NCBI GenBank assembly: GCA_964551595.1
Contig: CAZKCU010000001.1
Location: 65,246 to 129,245 of the forward strand
From: an uncultured Candidatus Saccharibacteria bacterium
GTDB taxonomy: Bacteria > Patescibacteriota > Minisyncoccia > Minisyncoccales > CAZKCU01
DNA length: 64,000 bases
Reading direction: 5' to 3'
The translations under genes were made by a program, and so were the position numbers. Within the stretch, counting starts at the first letter, position 1. Each line of letters begins with the position of its first letter. This document shows positions 15,901 to 63,031 of this stretch, piece after piece. The notes beneath the pieces were generated by a model. It saw only the letters and a list, made by a program, of their open reading frames with translations. It was not told the DNA's origin and did not search any database.

Positions 15901-18900
15901 GGCGTCTCCTACAATCAACTCTGTGGTAAATGCTGTGCCAGTGCCCACTACAGCCGTAGATAGACTGGTCACTGCCACCGTGCCTGTTAGAGCGGTGTTT
16001 AAATTACCTTTGACATCTAAATTGGCGGTTGGTGCCGTTGTCCCGATACCTAAATTACCAGCGATATAAGCATCGCCGCTTTGTTTAACATAAAACTTAT
16101 CAACTTCAAAAACATCTTCTTGAGGGCCAGCGTTATCAAAATCAAAAATAGAAGGATGGCCACCGAAATTATTAGGATAGCCAAACCAAAAATGAGTATT
16201 AGTACCAAGAGCCAGACAATCTGAATTGGCAACGGTTACCGTTCCGGTTTGGACACTATCGGTGACGTTGAAAATAGTAAGTGTTAAGTTTACCGCATCT
16301 CTAGTGATAGTAATTCGGTATTCTTTGGCAAAATCAATAGTTATTCCTAGCCAGTTGCTCGAACCAGTTTGCCAAGTAGTCCCGTTATAATAATATTTTA
16401 TGTTGTTTTGGTCAGTTCTAGTTAGAGTAGGATTAGGATAGTAGCTATAGAAACCAAGATGGAGCAAACTAGTCGAAGTTGACCAATAATCAAATTCGCC
16501 AGTAGGCGAATTGGTCCCGGTCCAAATACCGAACTTGACGCCACAATAATTCGAGCCTTCGCAATAATTTTTAAGAGCTTCCACTTGGTAGCCGAAAGTT
16601 GAACCAATATTATTAGTAGTTCTTAGATAAACGTATGTTCCGCTAGTCGCAGCATAGCTGGCCCGATAAACACCGCTAGTTACTTGGCCATCACTACCAC
16701 CACCTTCGTAGTTGGTAAAGATACCATAAGTTTCACCATTATCTAAAGCAGCATCGGTATCAAATGTTTCTAGTGTTATAGGAGCATTAAAAATTCTTAG
16801 AAGTTTGCTTGATGCTCCTTCTCCTGAAGTACGTCCATAGATTTTTCCTAAAACTTCAAGTTTAACGGACGGATTGGTCGTCCCGATTCCGACGTTGCCA
16901 TCAACAGTGGCTAAAGCAGTGGTGGCAGTGCTTCTTAAGGTACCATAAACATCCAAAGCATATGCTGGCGTTGCCATCCCGATGCCCACGTTGCCGCCAA
17001 GAAAAGCAGCAGTATAGTTGTTTGTAGCGCCAGTTTGAGTATTGACGGTTAAGCCATAGGAGTTAGTAGCTCCAGCCGCAACCGCTCCAGCTTGAATCAA
17101 GAGTCCATGAGTGTTTGTAAGTGTTGCATTTGTACCTGCTATTGGAGCACCTGCGACCGCTAATGTAGCAGCATCTGTAATAGTGCTTGCTCCAACAAAC
17201 GAATAAGTCGGAGCTGTAATTAGAACCTCCCTTTGAGTTGTTAATGCTCCTGTTGCCCATTGCCTGCCAGCAGTTGTAATAGTTACGGCTGGTATTTCTG
17301 TTGAGAGCGTTTGATCGGTATTAACTGCTCCAGTATAAACAATGCCTGTTAATTCTCCTGTTGCTGTTGCCGTTTGTACAACTTGGAATTTTGCTGTAGG
17401 ATTCGTCGTCCCAATGCCGACATTGCCGTCTCCGTCTATAACTAAACGGGTAGTCAGTTGGCCACCACCTCCAGTGTTTTCATAGCCATAGCAATATGTC
17501 TGCTGGTTTCCAATCAATAAATCATAATCTCCGTCATTGTCTAGGTCGGCAAAGGCTGGACCAGCCCAAGCACTCACATCAGGAGTATCCCAGCTGGATT
17601 TTGCTATCCAAGTTGGGCTGGAAACAGTTCCGGTGTTTTCATAGCCATAGCTTATTCCACTATTGTCTCCAATCAATAAATCATAATCTAAATCATCGTC
17701 TAAGTCGGCAAAGGCTGGGCTAGCCCGAGTTCCCACATCAGAGGTATCCCAGTCTGATTTTGCTTCCCAGGTTGGACTGGAAACAGTCCCGGTGTTTTCA
17801 TAACCATAACTATATCCATCACTCGCTCCAATCAATAAATCATAATCTAAATCATTGTCTAAGTCGGCAAAGGCTGGTCTACTATAATCTCCCACATCAG
17901 GAACATTCCAGTCTGATTTTGCTGCCCAAGTTGGGCTGGAAACAGTTCCGGTATTTTCATAGCCAATGCTTATCCCATTCTCGGTTCCAATCAATAAATC
18001 ATAATCTAAATCATTGTCTAAGTCGGCAAAGGCTGGGGCAGCTTGCTTTCCTGCATCAGGGGGATCCCAGTCGCCTTTTCTTGTCCAGGTTGGACTGGAA
18101 ACAGTTCCAGTGTTCTCATAAGCATAGCTGTATCCGTTAGGCACTGATCCGTTCGAACCCACCCCAATCAATAAATCATAATCTAAATCATTGTCTAAGT
18201 CGGCAAAGGCTGGTCTAGGGTCAGCAGGCCCAGAAACATCCCAGTCAGATTCTGCTGCCCAGAAATCTATTGACTGCAGGCTTTTAAACAAGAAGGAGGA
18301 AAGACCAGTCTGAAGAATAGTTTCATTGTCTAAAGAAAGAATAGTATCGAGATATCTGTTAGCATCGTATCTTACTGATAACTGGGAAGTAGTAGTACTG
18401 GTAATTCTGACTTGACCAGCAATATCTAATTCCACCTCCGGGCTGGCTGTGGCAACACCGACCTTGCCGCTGGTTTCATACAAAACAGAATCAGTCAAAT
18501 CGGTGCTGGTGTTCCATTTAGGCAGATAGCCAGCAGTTCCGCTTCCAGTTACTCCTCCGGCTCCAGCAATGGTTGTCCAAGCCAAACTACCTGAGCCATC
18601 ATCCTTCAAAAACCCATCAGCAGTATGAGCAGAAGGCCAAGAATAGGTAAGGTTTTTTAGCTTGATAATATCTCCAGAACTATCTACCTGGAATTGAGAA
18701 GCAGAACCAACAGAAAAAAGAGAAGTAGGACTGGCTGTGCCGATGCCGATATTACCTCCATCATCTAAAACTAATTGATTACTAACTCCGTCAACATTCA
18801 TTACCAAATCACCATTAGAATCTACTTGAAAGTCAGCATAGACTGATTCATCTGCCTGAGTAAGACGAAGTTGAGGGTTAGAAGCGTCTAAAACGTCTAA

Positions 18901-21900
18901 TTTCCTATCTGGTCCAGTTGTGCCGATGCCGACGTTGCCCCCACTGGTGATAGATAAAGTTCCGCTGGAGCCACCAATAGTGCCACCAGAAGATAATTGA
19001 ATATCAGCTGTATAGTCAAAGGAATCACGGTAGATTTGAAGACCATAAGAAGTAGTGGCTATATTTGCCTGGAAGTTGTTAGCAATCCTTAAGCCGACAG
19101 CTGTAGTAACACTGGCTCCTGTTTGACCGTCTAAGATAAGTTCTGCTCCTCTTAAGGTGATGACAGTTTCATCCTTAGCATCAGCTGAAGCTGAGATTGC
19201 TTCCAGAGTGCCGACTGAACCTCCTGTCAGGTCAGAACCTGCAGCTCTGGCTTTAACTTCTATTCCTCTGATAGTGCCAGAGGAGCTGTCAAGTTCTCCG
19301 TTGGTGGCAACAAAGTAGCCAGCCCTTAGAGTGCCTGTTAAGGCATTGGTTCCTTGGGTCACCAAACTTCTTATTCCTTCGTCTCCTCCAACTGCTGTCT
19401 GGGTATAGCTAAGATCGAGCTTGGCCCCAGGATTTGTCGTCCCGATGCCCAGATTACCCTCTCCAGTTATTACCATGTTAGGAGTGGTGGCGGTAGCTAA
19501 GGCAGTAAAGAGATAGTTTTTGACTGTTACTCCTGAACTATGGGTAGCGGCCGTTGTTCCCAAAGCCCCTCTGGTTAAACCAGTAAACACGGTGTCGCTC
19601 TTATTTGTATAAGTCATAGCTTCTGAATCAATTAGCAAGGTTCCAACCGAAGGATAACCAGAGGTAGAGGCAACAGTGGCAGTAGTCTGACTGTCAGTCA
19701 TATCAGCTGAAAGGGTAGTATAGGTTGTCGGTGCCTGACCAACTCTTGTCCCTCCCGCCACCTCTAATCTTTCATAGGGTGCTGTCGTAGCGACGCCAAC
19801 TTTACCGTCTTGGTCTATAACTAAACGGGTAGTCAGTTGACCACCACTTCCGGTGTTCTCATAGGCATAACTTACTCCACCAGTGGCTCCAATCAATAAA
19901 TCATCATCTCCGTCATCGTCTAAGTCGGCAAGGGCAGGTCTAGCAGATCCCACATCAGGAGCATCCCAGTCAGATTTTCTTGTCCAGGCTGGGCTGGAAA
20001 CAGTTCCTGTGTTCTCATAGGCATAAACTCTATCACCACTGGCTCCAGTCAATAAATCATAATCTCCGTCATCGTCTAAGTCGGCAAGGGCAGGTGAAGA
20101 ATAAGAAAGTCCCACACTAGGAGCATCCCAGTCAGATTCTCTTGTCCAGGCTGGGCTGGAAACAGTTCCTGTGTTCTCATAACCCAAACTTACTCCGCTA
20201 ATTTCTCTAATCAATAAATCATAATCTCCGTCATTGTCTAAATCGGCAAAGCCAGGGCCACTCCCAGTCCCCACATCAGAGACATCCCAGTCAGATTTTC
20301 TTGTCCAGGTTGGGCTGGAAACAGTTCCGGTGTTCTCATAGGCATAACTTATTCCATCAAAGCTTCCAATCAATAAATCATAATCTCCGTCATCGTCTAA
20401 GTCGGCAAGGGCAGGAGCAGGCATAAGATCGCCTATATCAGGAGCATCCCAGTCAGATTCTCTTGTCCAGGCTGGGCTGGAAACAGTTCCTGTGTTCTCA
20501 TAGCCATAGCTTTGTCCATAATATCTTCCAATCAATAAATCATAATCTCCGTCATCGTCTAAGTCGGCAAAGGCAGGAGCAGAATAAGTTCCTACATCAG
20601 GGGCATCCCAGTCAGATTTTCTTGTCCAAAAATAAACTGCTTGCTGTAGACTCTTAAACAAGAAAGAGGAAAAACCAGTCTGAAAAGTGGTTTCACCTGA
20701 AGAAAGGAGGGTATTGAGATACTTGGCAGCATCGTATCTTACTGATAACTGGGGAGTGGTAGTGCTGGTAATTCTGGCTTGGCCAGCAATATCTAATTCC
20801 ACTTCCGGGCTGGCTGTGGCAATGCCAATATTGCCTCCAGTTTCATATAAAACAGAATCAGTCAAAGTAGTGCTGGTGCTCCATTTGGGAATGTATCCAG
20901 CAGTTCCGCTGCCAGTTACTCCTCCTGCTCCGCCAATGGTTGTCCAGGTTAAGGTTCCTGAACCGTCATCTTTTAAGAAACCATCAGCAGTATGAGATGA
21001 AGGCCAAGAATAGGTAAGGTTTTTTAGTTTGATAATATCTCCAGAAGTATCTATCTGGAATTGGGAAGAGGCACCAACAGAAAAAAGGGAAGTAGGGCTT
21101 GCCGTCCCGATGCCGACGTTGCCGCCATCGTCAGCTAAAATGACGTAACCCTTGGTAGCATCAGAAGTTGTTCTTAAAGTAAGATTACCCGAGGCAGCCG
21201 AAGAACCATAAATAATTGGAGAGGTAACTGAGGTTGAGAAAACAGGATTATTTATGGTAGCTATTGTTACATTACCTCCAGCTCCTCCATCAGTTACTGA
21301 AATATTGGTTCCGGCGGTTAAGACTCTTTCATCGGTTAAAGTGGCATTGACTGCTAAGGTAACGTACTGGGCGTCAGTGGGCACGCCGCCGCCAACCGCG
21401 CCCCATGATGTTCCGTTGTACATGTCGTACTGGTTGGTGGTTGTGTTGTAAATGAAAAGTCCTGTTGCTGGTGAAGAGATAGCATCTCTTTGGGCTTCTG
21501 TCATTCGCGGGGCAAGAAATCCTTTCTCCGTCGAGGTGAGGTCCAACAACGCCGTCGCCGCCGGCCCCGTCGTCCCGATGCCAATATTCCCGCCGGTCTG
21601 ATAGAGAATAGAATTTCCTAAACTGCCGGAGCTGGTCCAGATTGAAAGATAATTGGCAGAACCTGAACCGCCAATACCTCCTCCTCCACCACCACCAACC
21701 CGCAAAGTGCTCAAACACCTGCCGCCTTTCAAATCAGTACAAATATCACCTGTTGCCTGAATCCTTCCCTCAACATGGAAAGGATGAGCAGGATCTTCAA
21801 TTCCAATTCCAACATTACCGACTGAATCAATAGCAATTGCTACCCCCCCAAGGTATAAATCGCTGATTGAAGAATCTCTAACTTCCTGAGCAGAAATAAA

Positions 21901-22803
21901 TTTAGCTAATCTGTTGGGGGTGCCGCCAAGGGTAATTACTTCTCCTTCTAAACCAAAACAATTTCCGGTAGCTAAACAAACAGTTCCGGATAAATCTGGA
22001 AAATTATATTCTCTCTCAACAGTAAGTCCGGCAGCAGTAATTCTTCCTTCAAATTCATTTCTGATTAAAGCGAAACTTGGGGCAGTTATTTTTTCTTTTG
22101 CTTTTAAAAGAGCGTTAATAGCTGTTTCAGCATTGATAGTAAGATAGGGTTCAACAGCCGGAAGGCTAAAAACTTCTTCGCGAAGAGAAGAAGCCGGCAA
22201 TTGAGTTAATTTTCTAAATCCACTTATATGTTCGCTTATATTAGCTAAAAAATAAGGAATTGGATCTATAAAATTAATTTTTTCATCTGTAAAAAAAAGG
22301 GTTGAAACGCAAATTAAAACCAAAAGCACAATTTTTAAAATAGCCGGTATTTTTACAAAGGGTTTTCTTTCAATAATAATTTCAGGAGTTTCTTTGATTT
22401 CCAATTCTTCTCCTTTTTCTTTTTCTGTTTGCGGAACTTCAGTTTTTAACTGAAAAGATTCAATTCCCGGACCATACATATATGTATGGGGAGTAGTAAT
22501 TTTTGGCAGCTTTTTCTCAAAAACTTTTTCTTCTTCCTCTCTTTTTATTTCCTGAATACTCTTTCCGGCTTTTAATTTTTTGTCAATCTCAAGCAAAATT
22601 CCAAGAGTGCTTTCCAAGTAAGCACCGTTTGGAGGCAGACCGTTAAAAGACTTTCTTTGAAGATGTGGCAAAAGACCGATTTTGACGTAATAGCGCAGAC
22701 GATTTTTAGGGTCACCTTTTCCAAAATCAACTCCAAGTCTTCTTGCTCTAGCAATAAATTCTTCAATGCTTATTAAATTTTCATTTTTATTCTCTATTGA
22801 CAT
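12907..22803 (-). CDS. Giant (3,298 aa) single-pass mosaic surface protein with a cytoplasmic MerR-like HTH N-terminus
   Basis: Uninterrupted 9.9-kb ORF. Aa 1-95 are MerR-like (RLRYYVKIGLLP...SIQEIK). One TM helix at aa ~152-172 (IPAILKIVLLVLICVSTLFFT). Then GN(V/I)GIGT-punctuated tail-fibre-like segments, 2x5 FG-GAP-like repeats, 7 Asp-box blades, a C-terminal beta domain, a Cys-rich segment and an E/P/A/V tail. Confidence 0.9.
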   Translation of the reverse strand: MSIENKNENLISIEEFIARARRLGVDFGKGDPKNRLRYYVKIGLLPHLQRKSFNGLPPNGAYLESTLGILLEIDKKLKAGKSIQEIKREEEEKVFEKKLPKITTPHTYMYGPGIESFQLKTEVPQTEKEKGEELEIKETPEIIIERKPFVKIPAILKIVLLVLICVSTLFFTDEKINFIDPIPYFLANISEHISGFRKLTQLPASSLREEVFSLPAVEPYLTINAETAINALLKAKEKITAPSFALIRNEFEGRITAAGLTVEREYNFPDLSGTVCLATGNCFGLEGEVITLGGTPNRLAKFISAQEVRDSSISDLYLGGVAIAIDSVGNVGIGIEDPAHPFHVEGRIQATGDICTDLKGGRCLSTLRVGGGGGGGIGGSGSANYLSIWTSSGSLGNSILYQTGGNIGIGTTGPAATALLDLTSTEKGFLAPRMTEAQRDAISSPATGLFIYNTTTNQYDMYNGTSWGAVGGGVPTDAQYVTLAVNATLTDERVLTAGTNISVTDGGAGGNVTIATINNPVFSTSVTSPIIYGSSAASGNLTLRTTSDATKGYVILADDGGNVGIGTASPTSLFSVGASSQFQIDTSGDIIKLKNLTYSWPSSHTADGFLKDDGSGTLTWTTIGGAGGVTGSGTAGYIPKWSTSTTLTDSVLYETGGNIGIATASPEVELDIAGQARITSTTTPQLSVRYDAAKYLNTLLSSGETTFQTGFSSFLFKSLQQAVYFWTRKSDWDAPDVGTYSAPAFADLDDDGDYDLLIGRYYGQSYGYENTGTVSSPAWTRESDWDAPDIGDLMPAPALADLDDDGDYDLLIGSFDGISYAYENTGTVSSPTWTRKSDWDVSDVGTGSGPGFADLDNDGDYDLLIREISGVSLGYENTGTVSSPAWTRESDWDAPSVGLSYSSPALADLDDDGDYDLLTGASGDRVYAYENTGTVSSPAWTRKSDWDAPDVGSARPALADLDDDGDDDLLIGATGGVSYAYENTGSGGQLTTRLVIDQDGKVGVATTAPYERLEVAGGTRVGQAPTTYTTLSADMTDSQTTATVASTSGYPSVGTLLIDSEAMTYTNKSDTVFTGLTRGALGTTAATHSSGVTVKNYLFTALATATTPNMVITGEGNLGIGTTNPGAKLDLSYTQTAVGGDEGIRSLVTQGTNALTGTLRAGYFVATNGELDSSSGTIRGIEVKARAAGSDLTGGSVGTLEAISASADAKDETVITLRGAELILDGQTGASVTTAVGLRIANNFQANIATTSYGLQIYRDSFDYTADIQLSSGGTIGGSSGTLSITSGGNVGIGTTGPDRKLDVLDASNPQLRLTQADESVYADFQVDSNGDLVMNVDGVSNQLVLDDGGNIGIGTASPTSLFSVGSASQFQVDSSGDIIKLKNLTYSWPSAHTADGFLKDDGSGSLAWTTIAGAGGVTGSGTAGYLPKWNTSTDLTDSVLYETSGKVGVATASPEVELDIAGQVRITSTTTSQLSVRYDANRYLDTILSLDNETILQTGLSSFLFKSLQSIDFWAAESDWDVSGPADPRPAFADLDNDLDYDLLIGVGSNGSVPNGYSYAYENTGTVSSPTWTRKGDWDPPDAGKQAAPAFADLDNDLDYDLLIGTENGISIGYENTGTVSSPTWAAKSDWNVPDVGDYSRPAFADLDNDLDYDLLIGASDGYSYGYENTGTVSSPTWEAKSDWDTSDVGTRASPAFADLDDDLDYDLLIGDNSGISYGYENTGTVSSPTWIAKSSWDTPDVSAWAGPAFADLDNDGDYDLLIGNQQTYCYGYENTGGGGQLTTRLVIDGDGNVGIGTTNPTAKFQVVQTATATGELTGIVYTGAVNTDQTLSTEIPAVTITTAGRQWATGALTTQREVLITAPTYSFVGASTITDAATLAVAGAPIAGTNATLTNTHGLLIQAGAVAAGATNSYGLTVNTQTGATNNYTAAFLGGNVGIGMATPAYALDVYGTLRSTATTALATVDGNVGIGTTNPSVKLEVLGKIYGRTSGEGASSKLLRIFNAPITLETFDTDAALDNGETYGIFTNYEGGGSDGQVTSGVYRASYAATSGTYVYLRTTNNIGSTFGYQVEALKNYCEGSNYCGVKFGIWTGTNSPTGEFDYWSTSTSLLHLGFYSYYPNPTLTRTDQNNIKYYYNGTTWQTGSSNWLGITIDFAKEYRITITRDAVNLTLTIFNVTDSVQTGTVTVANSDCLALGTNTHFWFGYPNNFGGHPSIFDFDNAGPQEDVFEVDKFYVKQSGDAYIAGNLGIGTTAPTANLDVKGNLNTALTGTVAVTSLSTAVVGTGTAFTTELIVGDAIKIKSEIFTVSEITGNLNLTLDSAYQGDTESGLVAYKDSNLFYVQDGDAAGKMVIDKSGNVGIGTASPSHLLHLSETTTAAGGDTLLRVTGLHTDDTAMTGTLRGAYIDISNGILASTGTIRGMELKARTEAPGDEGNDVAVLEGLSISADSKDHSVTTMRAAEFILDGSTGGTITEAVGLRIANNLQADKATISYGLQLYADSFNYDYGIYAAGSDKHYFSGNVGIGTESPFQKLTIAGDLSSTLKAGYLSTDNVLLSSLEGGMYFGRVGVKENQWGLANYGNTWTAKDSDRSWLGVAMSSDGKVQTAADGAPGQIYVSTDYGNTWTAKDSSRDWRGVAMSSDGKIQTVVVVTGQIYVSTDYGNTWTAKDSSRNWQKVAMSSDGKIQTATVSSGQIYVSTDYGNTWTAKDSSRDWYGVAMSSDGKIQTATDDGGQIYVSTDYGNTWTAKDSDRWWLGIAMSSDGKVQTAAADGDQIYVSTDYGNTWTAKDSSRSWWEVAISSDGKVQTAVVNNGQIYVSTDYGDTWTAKDSDRYWRGVVMSSDGKIQTAVVVGGQIYVSYADSFIYGGNVGIGTMNPTYPLHIYSGGVERYRFDTDGTAYADVAWSTFSPYISMHFIEGEKEDYEIGELIVISEDKKVSKTSLLYQNTLLGVVAEKAGFISYPHNWKEEMREGNLELDEFPGIPVAYLGDVPVKVSLEGGEITVGDPLTSSSESGIAMKSTEPGRVIGMALEPFNGTITQCETVITGNEETAKNEEAEECTTVESEIGKIMVFVNPHWSLGQLLDDGSLATSDDNEQLIDNNETSSETSEEQPTILDQFTLAIKKSLEKLGLLIKDGIVKVRELIAEKIFAKKLCLEGDDGETICVDKNQLEELLMKNQIQSIDSNSGSSGEGSDGNSLSVSNTDNSGSDDLTDGSTPDVCDATHLTLCTTQAECETAAGFWYNEGCNTEPKSEEPAVEEPAVEEPAEEPPAEEEPLAEEPPAEEPAVEEPTPDID
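12910..13041 (-). repeat. Low-complexity (E/P/A/V) C-terminal tail of the giant protein
   Basis: EEPAVEEPAVEEPAEEPPAEEEPLAEEPPAEEPAVEEP encoded by reiterated GGTTCTTC(W)GC units. Confidence 0.85.
13182..13206. repeat. Palindromic 25-26-nt element, copy inside the giant gene
   Basis: TGTCGGTAT-TTG-ATACCGACAGACT. The reverse complement of 51204-51229 matches at 25 of 26 positions. Confidence 0.8.
13690..14030 (-). other. C-terminal beta-rich domain of the giant protein, homologous to the ectodomain of the c-like protein at 24386-24688
   Basis: GELIVISEDKK..YQNTLLGVV...PVAYLGDVPVKVSLEGGEITVGDPLTSSSESGIAMK..GRVIGMALEPFN aligns with [19 protein letters not shown]...[48 protein letters not shown]. 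Confidence 0.7.
14222..15080 (-). repeat. Seven tandem 120-nt (40-aa) Asp-box/BNR blades (predicted 7-bladed beta-propeller)
   Basis: GQIYVSTDYGNTWTAKDSSR.W.GVAMSSDGK(I/V)QTA occurs 7 times. S-x-D-x-G-x-T-W is present in each unit. The DNA motif GAATCTTTGGCTGTCCAGGT recurs at exactly 120-nt spacing (14303, 14423 ... 15023). Confidence 0.9.
17400..18765 (-). repeat. Duplicated ~1.35-kb module B (stalk segment plus 5 FG-GAP repeats)
   Basis: DDGGNIGIGTASPTSLFSVGSASQFQVDSSGDIIKLKNLTYSWPSAHTADGFLKDDGSGS... parallels module A residue for residue, about 2.36 kb away. Confidence 0.85.
17460..18268 (-). repeat. FG-GAP/VCBS-like repeat block 2 (5 units of ~53 aa)
   Basis: PAFADLDNDLDYDLLIG....YGYENTGTVSSPTW..KSDWD occurs 5 times. 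DxDxDGDYD is a Ca-binding-type motif. Confidence 0.85.
19775..21132 (-). repeat. Duplicated ~1.35-kb module A (stalk segment plus 5 FG-GAP repeats)
   Basis: DDGGNVGIGTASPTSLFSVGASSQFQIDTSGDIIKLKNLTYSWPSSHTADGFLKDDGSGT... then 5 FG-GAP units, ending GGQLTTRLVIDQDGKVGVATTAP. Confidence 0.85.
19849..20640 (-). repeat. FG-GAP/VCBS-like repeat block 1 (5 units)
   Basis: PA(F/L)ADLDDDGDYDLLIG....Y(A/G)YENTGTVSSPAWTR(K/E)SDWDAPD occurs 5 times. Confidence 0.85.
22519..22803 (-). other. MerR-like helix-turn-helix domain at the N-terminus of the giant protein
   Basis: ISIEEFIARARRLGV...NRLRYYVKIGLLPHLQRK...AYLESTLGILLEIDKKLKAGKSIQEIK has the MerR pattern (HTH, R.Y...GLL.P, then a helix ending G.s..eI). 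Comparison is from memory of MerR-family sequences. Confidence 0.55.
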
Positions 22804-23094: not shown

Positions 23095-23265
23095 TAGTCG
23101 AAGAACATCCGTTCTTCTTCACTCACCGAGTCTCGTTTGCGGGACGAAGGTGGAAAAGAGTGCGGAGCGCTCTTTGACTTCGCTGCGACTCGGGTAGGCG
23201 AAGAGATAAATCTCTTCTTCACCCTTCATTGCGATTCGAGTAACCGAGAAATCTAAAGTCCAAAG
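23095..23265. ncRNA. GC-enriched multi-hairpin region (candidate structured RNA, class unknown)
   Basis: Nested or adjacent stems: GAAGAAC-ATCC-GTTCTTC; GTCTCG-TTTG-CGGGAC; AAAGAGTG-CGGAG-CGCTCTTT; CCGAGTC...GACTCGG; GAAGAG-ATAAAT-CTCTTC. Noticeably more GC-rich than its surroundings. No ORF. Confidence 0.3.
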
Positions 23266-36962: not shown

Positions 36963-37726
36963 TTAATAATCGCTTGTCCCCAAAACAATGCAGTGAATGT
37001 TCCTACAACAAGAAATGGCCCAAAGGGAACCTCACTCTTTAGAGTTTTTTTACCAGATATTATCAGCCCTATTCCTATTATAGCACCGATAAAAAAAGCT
37101 AGAAATAGAGCAATTAAAATATTTGGAAAACCCAAAAATAAACCCATAAAGAAAGCCAATTTTACATCGCCGACGCCCATCCATTTCCCCCGGGACATCA
37201 GCACTATCGCTCCAAAAAAAGCTGCCGCCCCCAAAGCAGAGTAAATTGAAAATTTGAGAATTGAGAATTGATTGAAAATTGATAATTGAAAATTGAAAAT
37301 TAGAGCTAATGTGATGGCTGGATAAATTATTTTATCGGGGATGATATAGTGTTTTAAGTCATAGACGAAAATGATGATTAAGAAACAAGCAATTACTAAA
37401 TAAAATATCAAATTCCAAAATCCAAATGCCAAATCGAATCCAAAATTAAAAATCCAAAATATTAAAACGGATAAAATTCCAGTAGCTAATTCAACCAATG
37501 GATATTGGAGACTAATTGGTTGGTGGCAATAGCGGCATTTTCCTTTTAAAATTAGAAAGCTGAAAATCGGGATTAAATCTTTCCAACCTAATTTGTGTTT
37601 ACAATAAGGGCAATAAGATCTCTGAATTAAAAAACTTTCGCCAGAAGGTAGGCGATAAATTATTGAATTCAAAAAACTTCCGAGGGTTAGGCCAAAAATA
37701 AAAACTATAAAATAGAAAAACCCCAT
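36938..37726 (-). CDS. pilD: Prepilin peptidase (A24 family)
   Basis: 262 aa. N-terminal Cys pairs CPYC...CRYC, polytopic, catalytic-Asp contexts YIIPDKI and MGVGDVKL. Confidence 0.92.
   Translation of the reverse strand: MGFFYFIVFIFGLTLGSFLNSIIYRLPSGESFLIQRSYCPYCKHKLGWKDLIPIFSFLILKGKCRYCHQPISLQYPLVELATGILSVLIFWIFNFGFDLAFGFWNLIFYLVIACFLIIIFVYDLKHYIIPDKIIYPAITLALIFNFQLSIFNQFSILKFSIYSALGAAAFFGAIVLMSRGKWMGVGDVKLAFFMGLFLGFPNILIALFLAFFIGAIIGIGLIISGKKTLKSEVPFGPFLVVGTFTALFWGQAIINWYLNLFL
37244..37306. repeat. Heptanucleotide tandem tract (9 units, 63 nt) inside pilD
   Basis: AAATTGA AAATTTG AGAATTG AGAATTG ATTGAAA ATTGATA ATTGAAA ATTGAAA ATTAGAG. Encodes FNFQLSIFNQFSILKFSIY. Confidence 0.8.
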
Positions 37727-45106: not shown

Positions 45107-45817
45107 ATGTGGAAAAAGCTCAACATTAAAAACTTTGCTTTATCTCTTCTTTTTCCTCGGTTTTGCTTTTGCTGCCAAAAAGAAGGAAGTTATCTTTGTG
45201 AAGATTGTCTTTCTACTATTGAAATTTCTGAACATTAATACTGTCTCTGTCAAAATCCTCAAAGAATCTGGCAGGGAGGAAAATGTCAAAGGTGTGCCTC
45301 CCGAAAACTCAATGGCCTTTATTTTGCTGCCCCCTACCAAAATAGTTTAGTTAAAAATTTAATTCACAGCTTCAAATATAAGCCTTTTATAAAAGAGCTC
45401 TCAAAACCATTAGCTTCTTTAATAATAAATCATTTTCAATTACTCGACAATCCTCCTAGTTTCTCTGAATTTCTTCTCATATCTGTTCCTTTGGAGAAGA
45501 GGAAGTTAAAACAGCGGGGATTTAATCAGGCAGAAGAAATAGCTAAAGAGCTTAGCTCTTTTTTGAAAATTCCCCTGGTTTCAGATTGTTTAATAAAAAT
45601 AAAAGAAACTTTACCCCAAGTTGAACTTTCCGGGAAAAAAAGAGAAGAAAATATCAAAGGAGTATTTTTGGTAAAGAATAACGAAAAAACAAGAGGAAGA
45701 AAAGTTCTTTTAGTTGACGATGTTTACACAACCGGCTCAACTATGGAAGAGGCGGCCCGAGTTTTAAAAACAGCTGGAGCTAAAGAAGTTTGGGGAGTGG
45801 TAGTAGCTAGAGGATAA
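45107..45817 (+). pseudogene. comF: ComF-family phosphoribosyltransferase interrupted by an in-frame TAA
   Basis: ATG 45107 gives MWKKLNIKNFALSLLFPRFCFCCQKEGSYLCEDCLSTIEISEH-TAA(45236-45238)-YCLCQNP..CQRC..YQNSLVKNLIHSFKYK..VPLEKRKLKQRGFNQAEEIAKEL..LLVDDVYTTGSTMEEA. Same frame throughout. Confidence 0.75.
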
Positions 45818-45849
45818 AAGAGAATTAGGAATTAAGAATTATGAATAAA

Positions 45850-46235: not shown

Positions 46236-48407
46236 ATGAATCTCACTACTCCAATTGAGGAAATTCCTCGGGTTGGTCTTATTTACCAAAAAAAGTTAAA
46301 AAAACTAGGAATCAAGAATATCCGTGATCTTTTTTTTCATTTTCCTCATCGCTATGAGGATTTTTCAAAGATAATCCCAATTTCAAAAGCCGAAGCCGGT
46401 GGCCCTTTTTGTTTTCAAGGAGAAATTTTAGATACAAAAAATATCTACACTTCCAGAAAAAGAATGGTTTTAACCCAGGCAACTATTGGCGACGAAACGG
46501 GAAAACTAAAAGTAATTTGGTTTAACCAGCCTTATCTCATCAACACTTTTAAAAAGGGGGATTATGTTTGTTTGGCAGGAAAAATAGCAAAAAAAGGAAG
46601 CGCAAAATATTTATCCAGCCCGGCATACGAAAAAATATCTCCAACATCTAACACCCAACATCTAACATCTAACCTTACCCATACCGGAAGATTAATTCCG
46701 GTTTATCCAGAAACAGAAGGATTATCCTCAAGATGGTTAAGATTTATTGTCAAACCTCTTTTGATAAAATTAAAAAACCAAATTTCAGATTCTCTGCCAG
46801 AAAAAATCAGAAAAAAATATGATTTTTTACCTCTCCAAAAAGCAATTTGGCAAATCCATTTTCCTGACTCCTTGAAATTAGCCAAAGAAGCAAAAAAAAG
46901 ATTTGCCTTTGAGGAGTTATTTAATCTTTCACTTTTTGTTTTAAGAGAAAGGCTAAAATTAGCCAGAGAAAAAGCAATTCCCATTCCTTTAAATCTGGCT
47001 CTTATTAAAGAATTTATTAAAAGCTTATCTTTCAAACTAACCGCTGCTCAAAAAAAATCTGCCTGGCAAATTTTAAAAGATTTAGAAAAGCCTCGGCCAA
47101 TGAACAGGCTTTTAGAAGGAGATGTTGGTTCAGGAAAAACAGTGGTAGCAATGATGGCTGCTTTAAATGTGGCTAAAGCAGGTTTCCAAATTGCTTTTAT
47201 GGCTCCAACTGAAATTTTGGCAAAACAGCATTTCCAAGAATTAATTAAATTTTTTAAAAATTTTAATTTAGATATTGGCCTTTTGACCGGAAAAGAAGAC
47301 AAATTTTTCTCCAGAAAGTTAAAAAATGAAGTTATTGAAATTTCCCGGAAAAAACTTCTTGAAAAAACAAAGAAGGGAGAAATAGATATTTTAATTGGCA
47401 CTCACGCTTTACTTCAAGACAAAGTAAAGTTTGGAAATTTAGCTTTAGTAACTTTAGATGAACAGCACCGTTTTGGAGTAGAGCAAAGAGCTAAGCTTTG
47501 TAAATCATCAAAAGATACCAACGGAAAAAAAATAATCCCTCATCTACTTTCAATGACTGCCACCCCTATCCCCCGCACCCTGTCTTTAACTATTTACGGC
47601 GACCTTGATTTATCTATTATTGATGAATTACCCAAGGGTAGAAAAAAAATAATTACAAAAATCGTCCAGTCAAAAGATAAAAAAGAAACCTATAATTTTA
47701 TCAGAGCCGAAGTTAAAAAGAACCGCCAAGTTTTTGTAATCTGTCCTCGGATTGAACCCGTCAAAACCTCTCCAGAAAATTTAGATGGTGAACTTTCACA
47801 GCAGGTATTAAGTTGGATGGAGGTAAAAGCGGTAAAAGATGAATATCAGAAACTTTCAAAAGAAATTTTCCCTGACTTAAAAATCGGCATGCTCCACGGC
47901 AAAATGAAAACTCAAGAAAAGGAAAAAGTAATGAAAGATTTTAAAGATAAGAAAATTGATATTTTGGTGTCAACTTCTGTGGTTGAGGTAGGTATTGATA
48001 TTCCTAATGCCACGGTAATGATGATTGAGGGTTCAGAAAAATTCGGTTTAGCTCAACTTCATCAGTTCAGAGGTAGAATAGGACGTTCTGATTTTCAATC
48101 TCACTGCTTTCTATTTACAGATGCGCCCGGCCTCGTAACAAACCGACGACTAAGAGCACTTCTCTCCTGCGAGAATGGTTTTGAGTTAGCGGAAAAAGAT
48201 TTGTTAATCCGGGGGCCCGGAGATTTTTCTGGTTCAAGACAATGGGGAATTCCCGATTTAACCATGGCTTCTTTAACAGATGTATTTTTAGTTGAAAAAG
48301 CCAGAGAGGAAGCTCAAGAAATTTTACAAGAAGACCCGGGATTAAAAAAATACCCCCAATTGCGAGAGAGATTAGAGGAATTTGGAAAAAGAATCCACCT
48401 TGAGTAA
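46236..48407 (+). CDS. recG: ATP-dependent DNA helicase RecG
   Basis: 723 aa. Wedge/OB N-terminal region, Walker A GDVGSGKT, DEQH box (TLDEQHRFG), helicase motif VI QLHQFRGRIGR. Confidence 0.95.
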   Translation: MNLTTPIEEIPRVGLIYQKKLKKLGIKNIRDLFFHFPHRYEDFSKIIPISKAEAGGPFCFQGEILDTKNIYTSRKRMVLTQATIGDETGKLKVIWFNQPYLINTFKKGDYVCLAGKIAKKGSAKYLSSPAYEKISPTSNTQHLTSNLTHTGRLIPVYPETEGLSSRWLRFIVKPLLIKLKNQISDSLPEKIRKKYDFLPLQKAIWQIHFPDSLKLAKEAKKRFAFEELFNLSLFVLRERLKLAREKAIPIPLNLALIKEFIKSLSFKLTAAQKKSAWQILKDLEKPRPMNRLLEGDVGSGKTVVAMMAALNVAKAGFQIAFMAPTEILAKQHFQELIKFFKNFNLDIGLLTGKEDKFFSRKLKNEVIEISRKKLLEKTKKGEIDILIGTHALLQDKVKFGNLALVTLDEQHRFGVEQRAKLCKSSKDTNGKKIIPHLLSMTATPIPRTLSLTIYGDLDLSIIDELPKGRKKIITKIVQSKDKKETYNFIRAEVKKNRQVFVICPRIEPVKTSPENLDGELSQQVLSWMEVKAVKDEYQKLSKEIFPDLKIGMLHGKMKTQEKEKVMKDFKDKKIDILVSTSVVEVGIDIPNATVMMIEGSEKFGLAQLHQFRGRIGRSDFQSHCFLFTDAPGLVTNRRLRALLSCENGFELAEKDLLIRGPGDFSGSRQWGIPDLTMASLTDVFLVEKAREEAQEILQEDPGLKKYPQLRERLEEFGKRIHLE
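46643..46677. repeat. 35-nt block of five heptamers inside recG
   Basis: AACATCT AACACCC AACATCT AACATCT AACCTTA. Encodes TSNTQHLTSNLT. Confidence 0.8.
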
Positions 48408-50140: not shown

Positions 50141-51190
50141 ATGAACATTTTAGCTATTGAAACATCATGCGACGATACCTGTGTCGCTGTATTGAAAGTT
50201 GGAAATTGTAAATTGAAAATTCTAAGCAACATCGTTTCCTCCCAGGTAAAAATTCATGCAAAATATGGAGGGGTTTATCCAACTTTAGCAAAAAGAGAAC
50301 ATCAGAAAAATTTGCCTTTGGTATTGAAAAGAGCTTTAAACAAAGCCAAGGGCCCAAAAGTTGATTTAGTTGCCGTAACTGTTGGACCAGGATTAGATCC
50401 TTGTTTGTGGACAGGAGTAAATTTTGCCAAAGATTTAGCCCAAAAATCAGACCTGTCAATAATTCCTGTAAATCATATTGAGGCACACATACTCGCCAAC
50501 TTTATTAATGAACAACGAACAACGAACAACGAACAGTTATTTCCGGCGATTTGTTTAGTAGTTTCCGGTGGCCATACCCAATTAATTTTGATGAGAGGGT
50601 ACGGGAAATACAAAATTTTAGGTGAAACAAGAGACGATGCGGCTGGCGAATGCTTTGATAAAATAGCCAGAATTTTAGGGTTAGGATATCCGGGAGGCCC
50701 ATTAATTGCTGCCGAGGCAGCAAAACTAAAAACTAAAAACTATCAACTAAAAATTAAATTGCCGAGGCCAATGATCTATCAAAGAAATTATGACTTCAGT
50801 TTTTCAGGGCTAAAAACAGCAGTTTTATATAATTTCAAAAGCCAATCAGAAAAAATCAGGAAATCAAAAAAATATATTCAGGCAATATCCGCTGAAGCTC
50901 AACAAGCAATAATTGACGTTTTGATTAAAAAAACCGTTCGAGCTGCCAAAGATTATAAAGCAAAAACTATAATTCTTGGCGGCGGGGTTGCTGCCAATGA
51001 TGAATTACGTAAGCAACTTATGTCAAATGTCAAATGTCAAATGTCAAATGTTAAATTCTTGGTTCCGCCAAAAAAATTCTGTACTGATAATGGAGCAATG
51101 GTAGCGGTAACTGCTTATTCTCATTGGTTTTGGGGAAAAGAGAAAAAACCAAAAAGTGTTGAAGCAAATGCCAATTTAAGGTTAGAATAA
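50141..51190 (+). CDS. tsaD: tRNA N6-threonylcarbamoyladenosine (t6A) synthesis protein TsaD
   Basis: 349 aa. ILAIETSCDDT, HIEAH, VVSGGHTQL, DFSFSGLKT, CTDNGAMVA. Confidence 0.95.
   Translation: MNILAIETSCDDTCVAVLKVGNCKLKILSNIVSSQVKIHAKYGGVYPTLAKREHQKNLPLVLKRALNKAKGPKVDLVAVTVGPGLDPCLWTGVNFAKDLAQKSDLSIIPVNHIEAHILANFINEQRTTNNEQLFPAICLVVSGGHTQLILMRGYGKYKILGETRDDAAGECFDKIARILGLGYPGGPLIAAEAAKLKTKNYQLKIKLPRPMIYQRNYDFSFSGLKTAVLYNFKSQSEKIRKSKKYIQAISAEAQQAIIDVLIKKTVRAAKDYKAKTIILGGGVAANDELRKQLMSNVKCQMSNVKFLVPPKKFCTDNGAMVAVTAYSHWFWGKEKKPKSVEANANLRLE
50191..50225. repeat. Heptamer block 1 in tsaD
   Basis: ATTGAAA GTTGGAA ATTGTAA ATTGAAA ATTCTAA (5 units, 35 nt). Confidence 0.7.
50507..50541. repeat. 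Heptamer block 2 in tsaD
   Basis: AATGAAC AACGAAC AACGAAC AACGAAC AGTTATT. Encodes NEQRTTNNEQ. Confidence 0.75.
50722..50756. repeat. Heptamer block 3 in tsaD
   Basis: AAAACTA AAAACTA AAAACTA TCAACTA AAAATTA. Encodes KLKTKNYQLKI. Confidence 0.8.
51020..51054. repeat. Heptamer block 4 in tsaD
   Basis: ATGTCAA occurs 4 times, then ATGTTAA. Encodes MSNVKCQMSNVK. Confidence 0.85.
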
Positions 51191-51252: not shown

Positions 51253-53337
51253 ATGAAACTTCCAAAAATTTACGAACCAAAAAAAGTTGAAAGGAAACTT
51301 TACAATCTCTGGGAAAAGAGTGGTTTTTTTAATCCTGACAAATTGCCGGGTAAAAGAAAAAAAACTTACACCATTGTCATTCCGCCTCCAAATATTACCG
51401 GATCTTTGCACATGGGTCACGCCCTGAATGTGATTTCGCAGGATATTTTAATCCGCTGGAAGCGGCTTCAAGGATATAAAGCTTTGTGGCTGCCAGGAAC
51501 CGACCATGCCGGTATTTCCACTCAATACGTGGTGGAAAAAGAATTAAAAAAAGCAGGTATTACTCGTTTTGATTTGGGTAAAGAAAAATTTATTGAAAGA
51601 GTCTGGCAATGGAAAAAAAAGTATGGAAATATCATTTTGGAACAATTTAAAAAATTGGGATGTTCTTTAGATTGGTCAAGGACCCGTTTTACCATGGACA
51701 ATGATTATAGCAAAGCTGTAAAAGAAGCGTTTTTGCATTATTACAAAAAAGGGTTGATATACCGTGGCAAAAGAGTTGTCAACTGGTGCCCAAGGTGCCA
51801 AACTTCATTGTCTGATTTGGAAATTGAATACAAAGAAGAAAAAGGGAAATTATGGTATATAAAATACCCATTAGTTCAAAGTTCAAAGTTCAAAGTTAAA
51901 AGTTATATTACAGTTGCGACAACTAGACCTGAAACGATGCTTGGGGATACGGCAGTAGCGGTAAATCCTAAAGATAAAAGATACAAAGATTTAATCAGTA
52001 AAAAAGCAATTTTGCCTCTAGTTAATCGTAAAATTCCCATTATTGCTGATAGATTAGTTGACCCTGAATTTGGAACAGGAGCGGTAAAAATTACTCCGGC
52101 TCACGATTTAACAGATTACCAAATAGGTCAAAAACATAATTTGGAAAGCTGCCAAGTTATTAATGAAAGAGGTGAAATTACAAAAGAAGCCCCTCTTCCC
52201 TACCAAGAGTTAAAGGTTCTTCAAGCTCGCCAAAAAGTAATAAAAGACTTAAAAGAACTGGGGCTTTTAGAAAAAATTGAATATTATACTCATCAAATTC
52301 CCAAATGTTATCGCTGTTCTGCCATTTTAGAATTAATTCCTTCTGAGCAATGGTTTTTAAAAATGAAAGAACTTGCCAAAATGGCAGAAAGACCAGTAAA
52401 GGAAGGAAAAATAAAATTTCATCCAAAAAAATTTGAAAAACCATATTTTGAATGGCTAAAAAATATAAAAGATTGGTGTATTTCTCGGCAGATTTGGTGG
52501 GGCCATAAAATTCCTCTAAAGGGCGAAGCTGACGTTTTGGATACCTGGTTTTCTTCAGCACTTTGGCCGTTCGCGACTCTTGGCTGGCCAAAATCAACAA
52601 AGGATTTGAAAAGATTTTATCCAACCGATGTCTTAATAACTGCCCGCGATATTATTCCTCTCTGGGTAGTCAGAATGATATTTTCTGGAATGGAATTTAT
52701 GAAAAAAGTTCCGTTTAAAAATGTCTATATCCATGCCATAGTTTTAACCAGAGAGGGAAAAAGAATGTCAAAATCATTGGGCACAGGAGTGGACCCAATA
52801 AATCTTATTGAAAAATACGGAGCTGATGCCACTCGATTTGGAATTGCCTGGCAAATTATGGGAGGACAGGATATAAGATTCGTAGAAGATAATATTGTAA
52901 TGGGAAAAAAATTCTGTAATAAGATTTGGAATGCCTCCCGCTTTATTTTACTACAAATCAAAGCCAACAGAGAACGGTTCTCTGTTAAGTTGGAAAGGGG
53001 TAAAAATTTAACGGCTGCCGATAAAAGAATATTGAAGCTATTAGGCAAAACAATAAAAGCGGTAAATAAGGATTTGGAAAGTTTTCAATTTGGTAAGGCG
53101 GCTCATAACCTTTATCAATTTTTTTGGCATGACTTCTGCGACATATATATTGAAAGAGCTAAAATCCAGGAAGATAAAAAAAATACCCAAAAAATATTAT
53201 TATATGTATTACTAAATTCTCTAAAACTTCTGCATCCTTTCATTCCTTTTATTACCGAGGAAATTTATCAAAAATTGCCGATTAAAAATAAAAAAAGGTC
53301 TCTAATGATTGAGGAATGGCCCAAGCCATTTTCTTAA
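51253..53337 (+). CDS. valS: Valyl-tRNA synthetase (short form, no C-terminal coiled coil)
   Basis: 694 aa. HMGH, editing-domain TTRPET and GTGAVKITPAHD, RMSKSLG (KMSKS). Ends soon after the anticodon-binding domain. Confidence 0.93.
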   Translation: MKLPKIYEPKKVERKLYNLWEKSGFFNPDKLPGKRKKTYTIVIPPPNITGSLHMGHALNVISQDILIRWKRLQGYKALWLPGTDHAGISTQYVVEKELKKAGITRFDLGKEKFIERVWQWKKKYGNIILEQFKKLGCSLDWSRTRFTMDNDYSKAVKEAFLHYYKKGLIYRGKRVVNWCPRCQTSLSDLEIEYKEEKGKLWYIKYPLVQSSKFKVKSYITVATTRPETMLGDTAVAVNPKDKRYKDLISKKAILPLVNRKIPIIADRLVDPEFGTGAVKITPAHDLTDYQIGQKHNLESCQVINERGEITKEAPLPYQELKVLQARQKVIKDLKELGLLEKIEYYTHQIPKCYRCSAILELIPSEQWFLKMKELAKMAERPVKEGKIKFHPKKFEKPYFEWLKNIKDWCISRQIWWGHKIPLKGEADVLDTWFSSALWPFATLGWPKSTKDLKRFYPTDVLITARDIIPLWVVRMIFSGMEFMKKVPFKNVYIHAIVLTREGKRMSKSLGTGVDPINLIEKYGADATRFGIAWQIMGGQDIRFVEDNIVMGKKFCNKIWNASRFILLQIKANRERFSVKLERGKNLTAADKRILKLLGKTIKAVNKDLESFQFGKAAHNLYQFFWHDFCDIYIERAKIQEDKKNTQKILLYVLLNSLKLLHPFIPFITEEIYQKLPIKNKKRSLMIEEWPKPFS
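51873..51907. repeat. 35-nt block of five heptamers inside valS
   Basis: AGTTCAA occurs 3 times, then AGTTAAA AGTTATA. Encodes VQSSKFKVKSY. Confidence 0.85.
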
Positions 53338-62957: not shown

Positions 62958-63029
62958 GGGCACGTAGCTCAATGGCGGAGCATTTCTCTTATAAAGAAAA
63001 GGATGTTGGTTCGAGTCCAACCGTGCCCA
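62958..63029 (+). tRNA. tRNA-Ile (anticodon UAU)
   Basis: Acceptor GGGCACG/CGTGCCC. D-arm GCTC-AATGGCG-GAGC. Anticodon arm TTTCT-CTTATAA-AGAAA. T-arm GTTGG-TTCGAGT-CCAAC. Confidence 0.85.
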
Positions 63030-63031
63030 CT

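Follow-up and report, generated by a model that had tools for sequence, protein, structure and literature searches.

How do several short arrays of tandem 7-nt units, each built from a different unit, come to lie within a single conserved housekeeping gene that stays intact? The question is raised by tsaD in a 64,000-nucleotide stretch of contig CAZKCU010000001.1 (hereafter the window), from an uncultured member of the Patescibacteria. The coding sequence occupies positions 50141-51190 of the + strand (349 aa; open reading frame (ORF) and Pfam PF00814, E=3e-84). An identical protein (P0001, 100%) was found together with 8000 homologues, and the best solved relative is TsaD of T. maritima (PDB 6N9A/6NAK, E=3e-76). 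Homologues show no variation at the metal-binding residues H112, H116 and D316. The answer at which we arrive is that the tracts in this gene are probably heptanucleotide simple sequence repeats (SSRs), produced by slippage or template switching at period 7 and filtered by reading frame, stop codons and the tolerance of the loops holding them.

Heptamer tracts in tsaD and in related genomes

Tandem repeats were called in the window with Tandem Repeats Finder (TRF) and with our own scan for imperfect tracts, and TRF recovered all four blocks that the original prediction had placed in tsaD, all read on the + strand. The first (50191-50225, TRF 50191-50221/50225; ATTGAAA, 4.4 copies, 79% matches) is degenerate, its units reading TTGAAAG, TTGGAAA, TTGTAAA, TTGAAAA and TTC and encoding LKVGNCKLKI, and clean tracts were found at the same site in the related loci L009, L012, L016, L041 and L060. 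The second (50507-50541; GAACAAC, 3.7 copies, 100% matches) has an exact core at 50510-50535 and degenerate ends, and encodes NEQRTTNNEQ in the loop just ahead of LFPAICLVVSGGHT. The third (50722-50758; AAAACTA, 5.3 copies, 83% matches) encodes KLKTKNYQLKIK in the loop just ahead of LPRPM. The fourth (51020-51056; ATGTCAA, 5.3 copies, 96% matches) consists of four ATGTCAA units followed by ATGTTAA, and encodes MSNVKCQMSNVK at the end of a helix and in the loop before FLVPPKKFCTDN.

The odd peptides predicted for these blocks agree with the ORF translation, and their proposed location in variable loops was borne out both by alignment and by modelling. Relative to the T. maritima structure 6N9A, blocks 1-4 match small loop expansions of +3, +5, +4 and +2 aa. 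In the AlphaFold2 (AF2) model of the window protein, whose mean predicted local distance difference test score (pLDDT) is 79, block 1 spans the turn of the N-terminal beta-hairpin (strands 12-21 and 24-34), blocks 2 and 3 are loops with the lowest-confidence residues (pLDDT below 50 at residues 123-128 and 199-201, respectively), and block 4 corresponds to a helix end plus loop. A format of five units of seven nucleotides, also proposed for the blocks, captures the typical size of the tracts (mode about 29-34 nt) but is not a fixed format.

Exact tracts with at least three copies were counted for periods 5-15 and compared with 200 Markov-3 simulations, which gave four tracts at period 7 against 0.01 expected, and none at periods 5-6 and 8-15. 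When 20% mismatch was allowed and at least four copies were required, nine period-7 tracts were present in the window against 0.07 expected from Markov-3 shuffles, and none turned up with the same pipeline in phage T4 DNA (100 kb, 34.7% GC). Furthermore, the window was compared with four independent metagenome assemblies that encode the same TsaD; over 6.5-21 kb, identity is 99.9-100% and indels are absent, so the tracts are neither artefacts nor hypervariable. Chance, low-complexity composition or faulty assembly might be invoked for an AT-rich genome (37% GC), and for the weak tract 1 with its 79% matches in particular. However, with shuffles yielding 0.01-0.07 tracts where 4-9 are observed, no tract in T4 DNA of similar GC, no enrichment of periods 6 and 8, and agreement of four assemblies, the probability of this explanation is practically negligible.

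The excess is not confined to the window. A scan of a genome collection provided 80 related loci, 1.06 Mb in total, from Gribaldo-, Nealson-, Portnoy-, Staskawicz-, Kaiserbacteria and other Paceibacteria-type metagenome-assembled genomes, and the TsaD homologues carry Patescibacteria annotation. In these loci, exact tracts of at least three copies numbered 22 for period 7 and 4, 4, 1 and 1 for periods 5, 6, 8 and 9, while imperfect tracts numbered 103 for period 7 versus 14 for period 6 and 5 for period 8. Tract density was about threefold higher outside ORFs than inside (24 versus 8.4 per 100 kb), and 86 of the 117 tracts (74%) lay inside ORFs of at least 100 aa. A metagenome scan with three units of the site-4 heptamer, (AAATGTC)3, matched at least 120 contigs, some of which resemble other known heptamer-rich lineages or eukaryotic telomeres. 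Among the matches listed, 730 kb held 141 further period-7 tracts with other units, and 16, 12 and 9 tracts with periods 6, 8 and 9. As contigs with one tract hold many others with different units, richness in heptamers is a property of the whole genome.

The same pattern is repeated within tsaD itself. The 72 tsaD genes taken from the related loci contain 46 period-7 tracts, against one of period 6 and two of period 8, and these concentrate in six loops (residues 17-27, ~70, 118-136, 194-209, 229-245 and 293-314 in window numbering). At the protein level, 192 TsaD homologues were surveyed, with a loop called periodic when at least four of five consecutive positions were identical at lag 7. 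Periodic loops were found at sites 1-4 in 6, 17, 35 and 35 homologues, and lags 5, 6, 8 and 9 gave 0-1. The repeated peptides are diverse, with 14, 25 and 30 distinct heptad 12-mers at sites 2, 3 and 4 (for example KFEIRNSKFEIS, KYQISNIKYQIS, NLKPKTYNLKPK and SRVKSQESRVKF), the 25 at site 3 coming from 35 periodic homologues. The period-7 excess, for which comparison with shuffled controls had been suggested, is thus clade-wide in Paceibacteria-type Patescibacteria, and the tracts are not a result of generic, period-blind slippage.

Two features of tsaD in relatives can be mentioned here. After residue ~70 (about 50345-50350 in the window), most of the more distant Paceibacteria TsaD carry a helical insertion of 31-51 aa with the pattern LLK....ILEREPELLKKLxxFLKKYE (for example L012, L014, L016 and L023), whose N-terminal part often bears heptamer tracts; the window protein lacks it. 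In L064, the site 3 loop that carries heptamers in other genomes is occupied by a 72-nt octamer tract of about nine units (TCGAAATA/TCGAGATG) encoding ISKYRNIEMSRCRNVEISKCRNVE, so other periods are rare but exist.

Tracts that had been predicted in valS, recG and pilD are all real according to TRF, although the longest one in pilD comprises 8.7 units and not five. In valS, AGTTCAA is repeated 4.6 times (51873-51907, TRF 51873-51904; +) and encodes SSKFKVKS. In recG, AACATCT is repeated 4.4 times (46643-46675, TRF 46643-46673; +) within the wedge domain (Pfam RecG_wedge, 10-173), and this tract is 94% conserved in L086. The 8.7-unit tract of pilD, a prepilin peptidase gene (Pfam Peptidase_A24), was found by TRF and our scan at 37243-37305 (TRF 37243-37301; -) and reads AAATTGA on the + strand and TCAATTT on the coding strand. 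A second, shorter pilD tract (37409-37434; -) has the + strand unit CAAATTC in 3.7 copies (84% matches, TRF score 38). A non-coding tract of AGAATTA/GGAATTA with 3.7 copies (45821-45849, TRF 45821-45846; +) is located in the 3' UTR of a phosphoribosyltransferase gene (45491-45817, known from a gene call in L081), between its stop codon and its terminator hairpin. Its units, GAATTAG, GAATTAA and GAATTAT, resemble GAATTAG/GAATTAA tracts upstream of tsaD in L014 and L033. Altogether, eight different heptamer units are present in the window, and all of its tract-bearing ORFs are intact.

Turnover of the tracts and associated miniature elements

In regard to the way in which tracts change, a codon alignment of the window with its two closest relatives, L085 (81% aa identity) and L086 (76%), was decisive. 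At site 2, the window has GAACAAC GAACAAC GAACAAC GAACAG where L085 has GAACAAC GAGCAAG GAGCAAG GAGCAG, so that two identical substitutions recur in each unit at equal length, between flanks that are 97% identical. At site 4, L085 carries ATAAACT units in the 35-nt span occupied by ATGTCAA in the window, with 43% identity in the tract and 94% in the left flank. The AAAACTA tract of site 3 is identical in L086, flanks included, and is replaced by a non-repeat loop in L085; L086, in turn, is devoid of the site 2 tract. At the valS site, (AGTTCAA)x4.6 of the window corresponds to (AAAACCT)x5 in L086, (AAAACTA)x2 in L085 and a GC-rich replacement in L088, with L086 longer than L085 by exactly 21 nt, or three units. 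The alignment of orthologues, which had been recommended as a check, therefore revealed replacement at the same length with a single 21-nt difference, at valS. Judged from these alignments, the swapping of units at equal length between near-identical alleles is a form of concerted evolution. Tract units also blend into the neighbouring native sequence, as in the variants of the valS 3' flank and in IPNTKYL-IPDTKF-CTDN at site 4, which suggests that the arrays are seeded from local sequence.

Loop lengths across TsaD homologues agree with this. At site 3, a length of 20 aa was found in 30 of the 35 periodic loops and was also the commonest one among non-periodic loops (61 of 151). At site 4, 34 of the 35 periodic loops measure 30 aa, as do 82 of the 107 non-periodic ones. 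Histograms of TsaD loop length show only weak +7-aa modes. A model in which 21 nt are inserted in TsaD was tried and rejected, as periodic loops are no longer than non-periodic ones among the 192 homologues. The specific insertion or expansion mechanism that had been put forward thus holds in part: the process is not period-blind slippage and has a characteristic size of about 30-35 nt, but the tracts are not insertion products, given the unchanged modal loop length and the different heptamers in the same span of near-identical alleles. In a permutation test, units from one genome resembled each other no more than they resembled those of other genomes (p=0.26), and a common pool (AAAATTG, AAAAATT, AAAAATC, AAATGTC and others) is shared. 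With no added length, no terminal structures and no genome-specific unit, the tracts are not copies of an element.

The window tsaD is also a mosaic, mostly L085-like (flanks 94-97% identical) but with about 85 nt around site 3 (within 50650-50800) 100% identical to L086, and the recG region of the window is 97-99% identical to L086. On sequence grounds, the patterns at tsaD site 3 and recG can be taken as evidence of recombination between related lineages.

Relatives of the window also possess true miniature elements. A GC-rich element of about 57 nt with two hairpins (ACCGAG..CTTCCATTTRTGGAAG..GAAGAAGAGR..YCTCTTCGYC, encoding TE[LF]PF[VM]EAKVKKR[AT]K[SF]SS) is inserted midway along tracts, with the frame kept, at tsaD sites 1 and 3 of P0064 (L213) and site 2 of P0050 (L214), and a further mid-tract case in valS of L086 (12926-13037) makes three or four cases inside tracts. 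P0050 provides the exact empty site for the site 3 copy of P0064, and this empty site is a perfect AAATTTA tract, so the tract precedes the element and represents its target, not its footprint. The site 4 tract of P0004 (L212) is split by an unrelated, hairpin-rich insert of 87 nt. From their sequences, both inserts look like elements of the repetitive extragenic palindromic (REP) or Miniature Inverted-repeat Transposable Element (MITE) type that target the tracts, and the tracts seem to attract these elements. Likewise, L086-L089, 99.5-99.9% identical, differ only in the presence or absence of GC-rich hairpin-rich segments, one of which replaces the valS heptamer tract in one of them.

Further observations concern these GC-rich sequences. 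Valyl-tRNA synthetase (ValRS) of L086-L089 has 756, 722, 741 and 722 aa, with identical TsaD, because in-frame GC-rich segments of 57-102 nt come and go, and not because of 7-nt steps. A dispersed GC-rich repeat associated with these elements, CTTCGCTGCGGCTCGGG(TAGGC) with a GAAGA..TCTTC hairpin in units of about 48 nt, has a single relative in the window (23118-23240, motif 23178-23194; intergenic between 22803 and 23440) and in at least five copies within 19 kb of L086 (4285, 13021, 14988, 15036 and 16965), both intergenic and genic, and is present or absent between 99.5%-identical strains. A general link between the CTTCGC...GGG GC-rich repeat and the flanks of heptamers was considered and discarded, as it is not systematic; the 57-nt ACCGAG... 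element alone shows such a link, in three or four cases.

It could be supposed that the tracts themselves represent a small mobile element that entered genes in frame, or descend from one, as in the model of the Rickettsia palindromic element (RPE) or of a MITE. In-frame mini-elements do exist in relatives, the 57-nt element was found three times inside tracts, GC-rich elements differ between strains in presence and absence, and the CTTCGCTGCGGCTCGGG family is dispersed. However, the tracts add no length in comparison with non-periodic loops, share no sequence, terminal repeats or genome-specific unit, and the P0050 empty site is already a perfect tract, which makes a mobile origin very unlikely.

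Size, reading frame and the origin of the tracts

The excess over shuffles forms a plateau for tracts of 18-38 nt and then drops sharply; few tracts exceed 40 nt, and the mode is 29-34 nt. Sizes inside and outside ORFs were counted for tracts seeded on three exact units. In ORFs, the mode is 4.x units (29-34 nt), with 48 of 69 tracts and, in an independent set, 24 of 42, which fits one native unit plus three added ones. Non-coding tracts fall monotonically with size (22, 9, 2, 3...). The contrast is significant (p=4e-7), but the non-coding set represents higher-GC, probably unrelated organisms.

Because a heptamer array passes through all three reading frames, stop codons limit which arrays a gene can carry. 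The complement of AAATGTC contains TGA, and accordingly 81 of 82 cases within ORFs have AAATGTC on the coding strand; likewise, the long pilD tract is readable only on the - strand because its + strand unit contains TGA. In tract 1, the deviant unit TTGTAAA is placed where a perfect unit would give an in-frame TGA. Selection for stop-free units was examined and rejected, as 62% of consensus units are stop-free versus 63% of random coding heptamers. Open frames are kept by imperfect units instead, as expected from a generator that is blind to coding.

These results also bear on the possibility that the tracts are kept by a function, as symmetric beta-hairpin or Lys/Asn-rich surface loops of proteins, as heptamer-periodic binding sites in mRNA or DNA (for example for a cold-shock-domain protein), or, where tracts form inverted pairs, as regulatory hairpins. 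Homologues that share only 45-80% identity and have different units are periodic at the same loops, and site 1 maps onto a beta-hairpin in the AF2 model. Outside genes, three genomes have similar tracts of the GAATTAG type, and inverted tract pairs are present in L034 and, upstream of tsaD, in L014 and L033. However, units are identical as DNA even though they are read in three frames, which argues for a process at the DNA level and not for selection on peptides. Furthermore, peptide content varies widely, close relatives lack single tracts (L085 at site 3, L086 at site 2), the tracts occupy the least confident and least conserved loops, and consensus units are no more often stop-free than random ones. 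Maintenance by function is therefore quite unlikely, and no function is indicated by tracts of variable content in the least constrained loops, absent one by one from relatives.

The inverted pairs deserve mention in their own right. Non-coding arrangements such as (GAATTAN)n followed by (NTAATTC)n were found at 9915-9995 in L014, 5357-5428 in L033 and 6539-6621 in L034; those of L014 and L033 are directly upstream of tsaD and could fold into long imperfect hairpins. Some non-coding tracts might have been co-opted.

According to the explanation that we prefer, a mutational process working in a 7-nt register in this clade would make short tandem arrays from neighbouring native sequence, and the same process would then homogenise the units by concerted evolution. 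Replication slippage or short-range template switching would be the simplest candidates. Genic survivors would be those in which the frame is kept by a net change of 0 or 3 units (21 nt), in which no stop codon appears in any of the three frames, and which lie in loops tolerant of any peptide. Such filtering could give rise to the recurrent format of about 30-35 nt with 4-5 units and to 7-aa periodic peptides such as MSNVKCQMSNVK, and the tracts would be by-products of mutation that are tolerated. What we infer here is the molecular mechanism (slippage or template switching) and the reason for the 7-nt register.

Several results weigh against this explanation. No 7-nt length polymorphism was found among strains 99.5-100% identical, non-coding tracts included, so these are not hypermutable SSRs and slippage was not observed directly. 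The size contrast between ORFs and non-coding DNA is confounded by taxon and was not replicated (12 non-coding tracts in the replicate), and in the related loci the median size is 33 nt for non-coding and 34 nt for coding tracts, so the frame filter alone may not set the size. For the same reasons, the frame filter was dropped as the sole cause of the size mode, and a frame-filter account of size is suggestive. Length-preserving homogenisation would require double slips, conversion-like events or cycles of -3/+3 units, but intermediates shorter by 7 aa are almost absent (site 3, none; site 4, 1 of 142).

Alternatively, a dedicated process could write or rewrite about five heptamers over specific loops at fixed length, by a templated polymerase or reverse transcriptase (RT), a repair pathway or gene conversion. 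The strict period specificity, the replacement by unrelated units at the same length within near-identical flanks, the size mode of 29-34 nt with its sharp drop above ~40 nt in non-coding DNA too, and the lack of length polymorphism among strains would all be in line with it. On the other hand, no enzyme, template or flanking signature was found, the units are diverse and apparently arose from the native sequence next to them, and unrelated phyla also have heptamer SSRs of 2-6 units. Part of the apparent rewriting can be put down to alleles recombining with each other, the mosaic at site 3 being an example. Such writing is, in our opinion, unlikely. A broader proposal, that active length-preserving rewriting of loops, together with tracts as preferred landing sites of the 57-nt element, constitutes a loop-diversifying system in Paceibacteria-type members of the candidate phyla radiation (CPR), is similarly improbable.

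The tracts offer a better view of heptamer over-representation in bacteria, known for decades without a mechanism. Lying inside alignable conserved genes, they allow orthologous loops to record the birth of arrays, the turnover of units and frame-filtered size, which intergenic repeats cannot do. The resulting picture is testable: changes come in period-7 events, of which selection lets through only those with a net effect of 0 or ±3 units. Ultra-reduced CPR genomes, too, tolerate repeat-encoded junk peptides in essential enzymes such as TsaD, ValRS, RecG and PilD. This is of relevance when genes are annotated, when CPR marker proteins are aligned and used in phylogeny, and when the structures of their loops are predicted. 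The insertion of the 57-nt element in tracts suggests that SSRs and miniature mobile DNA may be connected.

Some features of the window are apart from the period-7 tracts. A giant ORF (12907-22803, -; 3298 aa), with a GC content of 0.43-0.46, above that of its surroundings, contains long tandem repeats of 120/240/360 nt (14243-15059), 159/318 nt (17470-18135) and 162/321 nt (19848-20628), and also a 15-nt repeat in 7.7 copies (12925-13039); it probably encodes a repetitive surface protein. A tRNA-Ile gene (62958-63030) with anticodon UAU (ARAGORN 'tat') adjoins tRNA-Val and implies direct AUA decoding and not the lysidine route. ValRS of the window (51253-53337) is short (694 aa) and lacks a C-terminal extension, its last domain being the one that binds the anticodon; relatives have 687-843 aa.

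Comparison with known heptamer repeats and mini-elements

Heptamer repeats as such are not new. The original prediction knew of no described element with this format, yet heptanucleotide SSRs, though mostly intergenic, have been published as the most abundant class of long SSRs in many bacterial genomes (PMC4692102, PMC4679880, summarising Mrázek et al. 2007). According to the same summaries, such repeats may arise by slippage because the polymerase contacts about 7 nt of DNA, and genes are expected to contain few repeats whose unit length is not divisible by three (PMC4692102, PMC4679880, summarising Mrázek et al. 2007). Sets of heptamers are described there as typically having 2-6 copies and a mostly intergenic location (PMC4692102, PMC4679880). 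We found no report in the literature of heptamer or other tandem repeats in CPR/Patescibacteria. The long SSRs with units of 5-11 nt (LSSR 5-11; Mrázek, Guo & Shah 2007) are like the window tracts in their head-to-tail 7-nt units as called by TRF, their period-7 excess and their short arrays of about 2-6 units per set, a range that all window tracts share except the one of 8.7 units in pilD. They differ in being found mainly in large genomes and in intergenic DNA, whereas here the genome is that of an ultra-small CPR bacterium and 74% of tracts reside in ORFs, including housekeeping genes. A further difference is that the content of CPR tracts changes at constant length. As to copy number, related species show one 3-unit step (valS) and weak +7-aa modes of loop length, and strains 99.5-100% identical show no change.

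Tandem heptamers of the cyanobacteria Calothrix and Nostoc are known as short tandemly repeated repetitive (STRR) sequences. Further examples are the GGGGA(T/C)T repeats of Nostoc PCC 7120 (PMC4692102) and the GGGAATC repeats of Xanthomonas (PMC4692102, PMC4679880). Like the CPR tracts, the cyanobacterial and Xanthomonas heptamers are dispersed, sometimes in inverted pairs, occasionally genic, and variable in length and sequence between related species. However, they involve one or a few dominant heptamers, often G-rich and capable of forming G-quadruplexes, and are mostly intergenic. TAACTGA direct repeats of marine Beggiatoaceae and cyanobacteria are reported in 2-6 copies per set, and within ORFs as readable only in reverse, giving LSVISYQ (PMC4679880). 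Their orientation is thus dictated by stop codons, which matches the 81 of 82 AAATGTC cases on the coding strand. In contrast to the CPR tracts, they represent a single conserved heptamer that is concentrated just upstream of start codons, with in-ORF copies mostly in hypothetical proteins and a proposed regulatory role. From the STRR, TAACTGA and GGGAATC families alike, the CPR tracts differ by dozens of A-rich units with no unit preferred by a genome (p=0.26).

The 7-bp repeats at hmw1A/hmw2A of Haemophilus, described as phase-variable contingency loci (PMC8262952), are also tandem heptanucleotide repeats tied to genes. They are long arrays, highly polymorphic in length, that switch the expression of surface genes from within the promoter or the ORF, unlike the CPR tracts, which show zero indels among strains and reside in housekeeping genes.

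Families of in-frame or dispersed mini-elements are described for REP, REPIN and MITE sequences (PMC3116915). The likeness to these and to RPE lies in an extra peptide in surface loops of essential proteins that the fold tolerates, but the heptamer tracts have no palindromic structure, do not share a common sequence and leave loop length unchanged. Dispersed shared copies and presence/absence alleles, which characterise such families, were found for the 57-nt element of relatives and not for the tracts. Site 2 likewise differs from the targets of diversity-generating retroelements, as the changes that recur from unit to unit, A to G and C to G, are not adenine-specific. No second copy of any tract was present within the window, with no genome-wide RT search made, and an Rfam scan of the window returned seven tRNAs only. 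In comparison with all these systems, what is new here is the in-frame residence of heptamer tracts in conserved housekeeping genes, the turnover at constant length and the CPR host; the many units per genome and the stability among strains are further departures from heptanucleotide SSRs.

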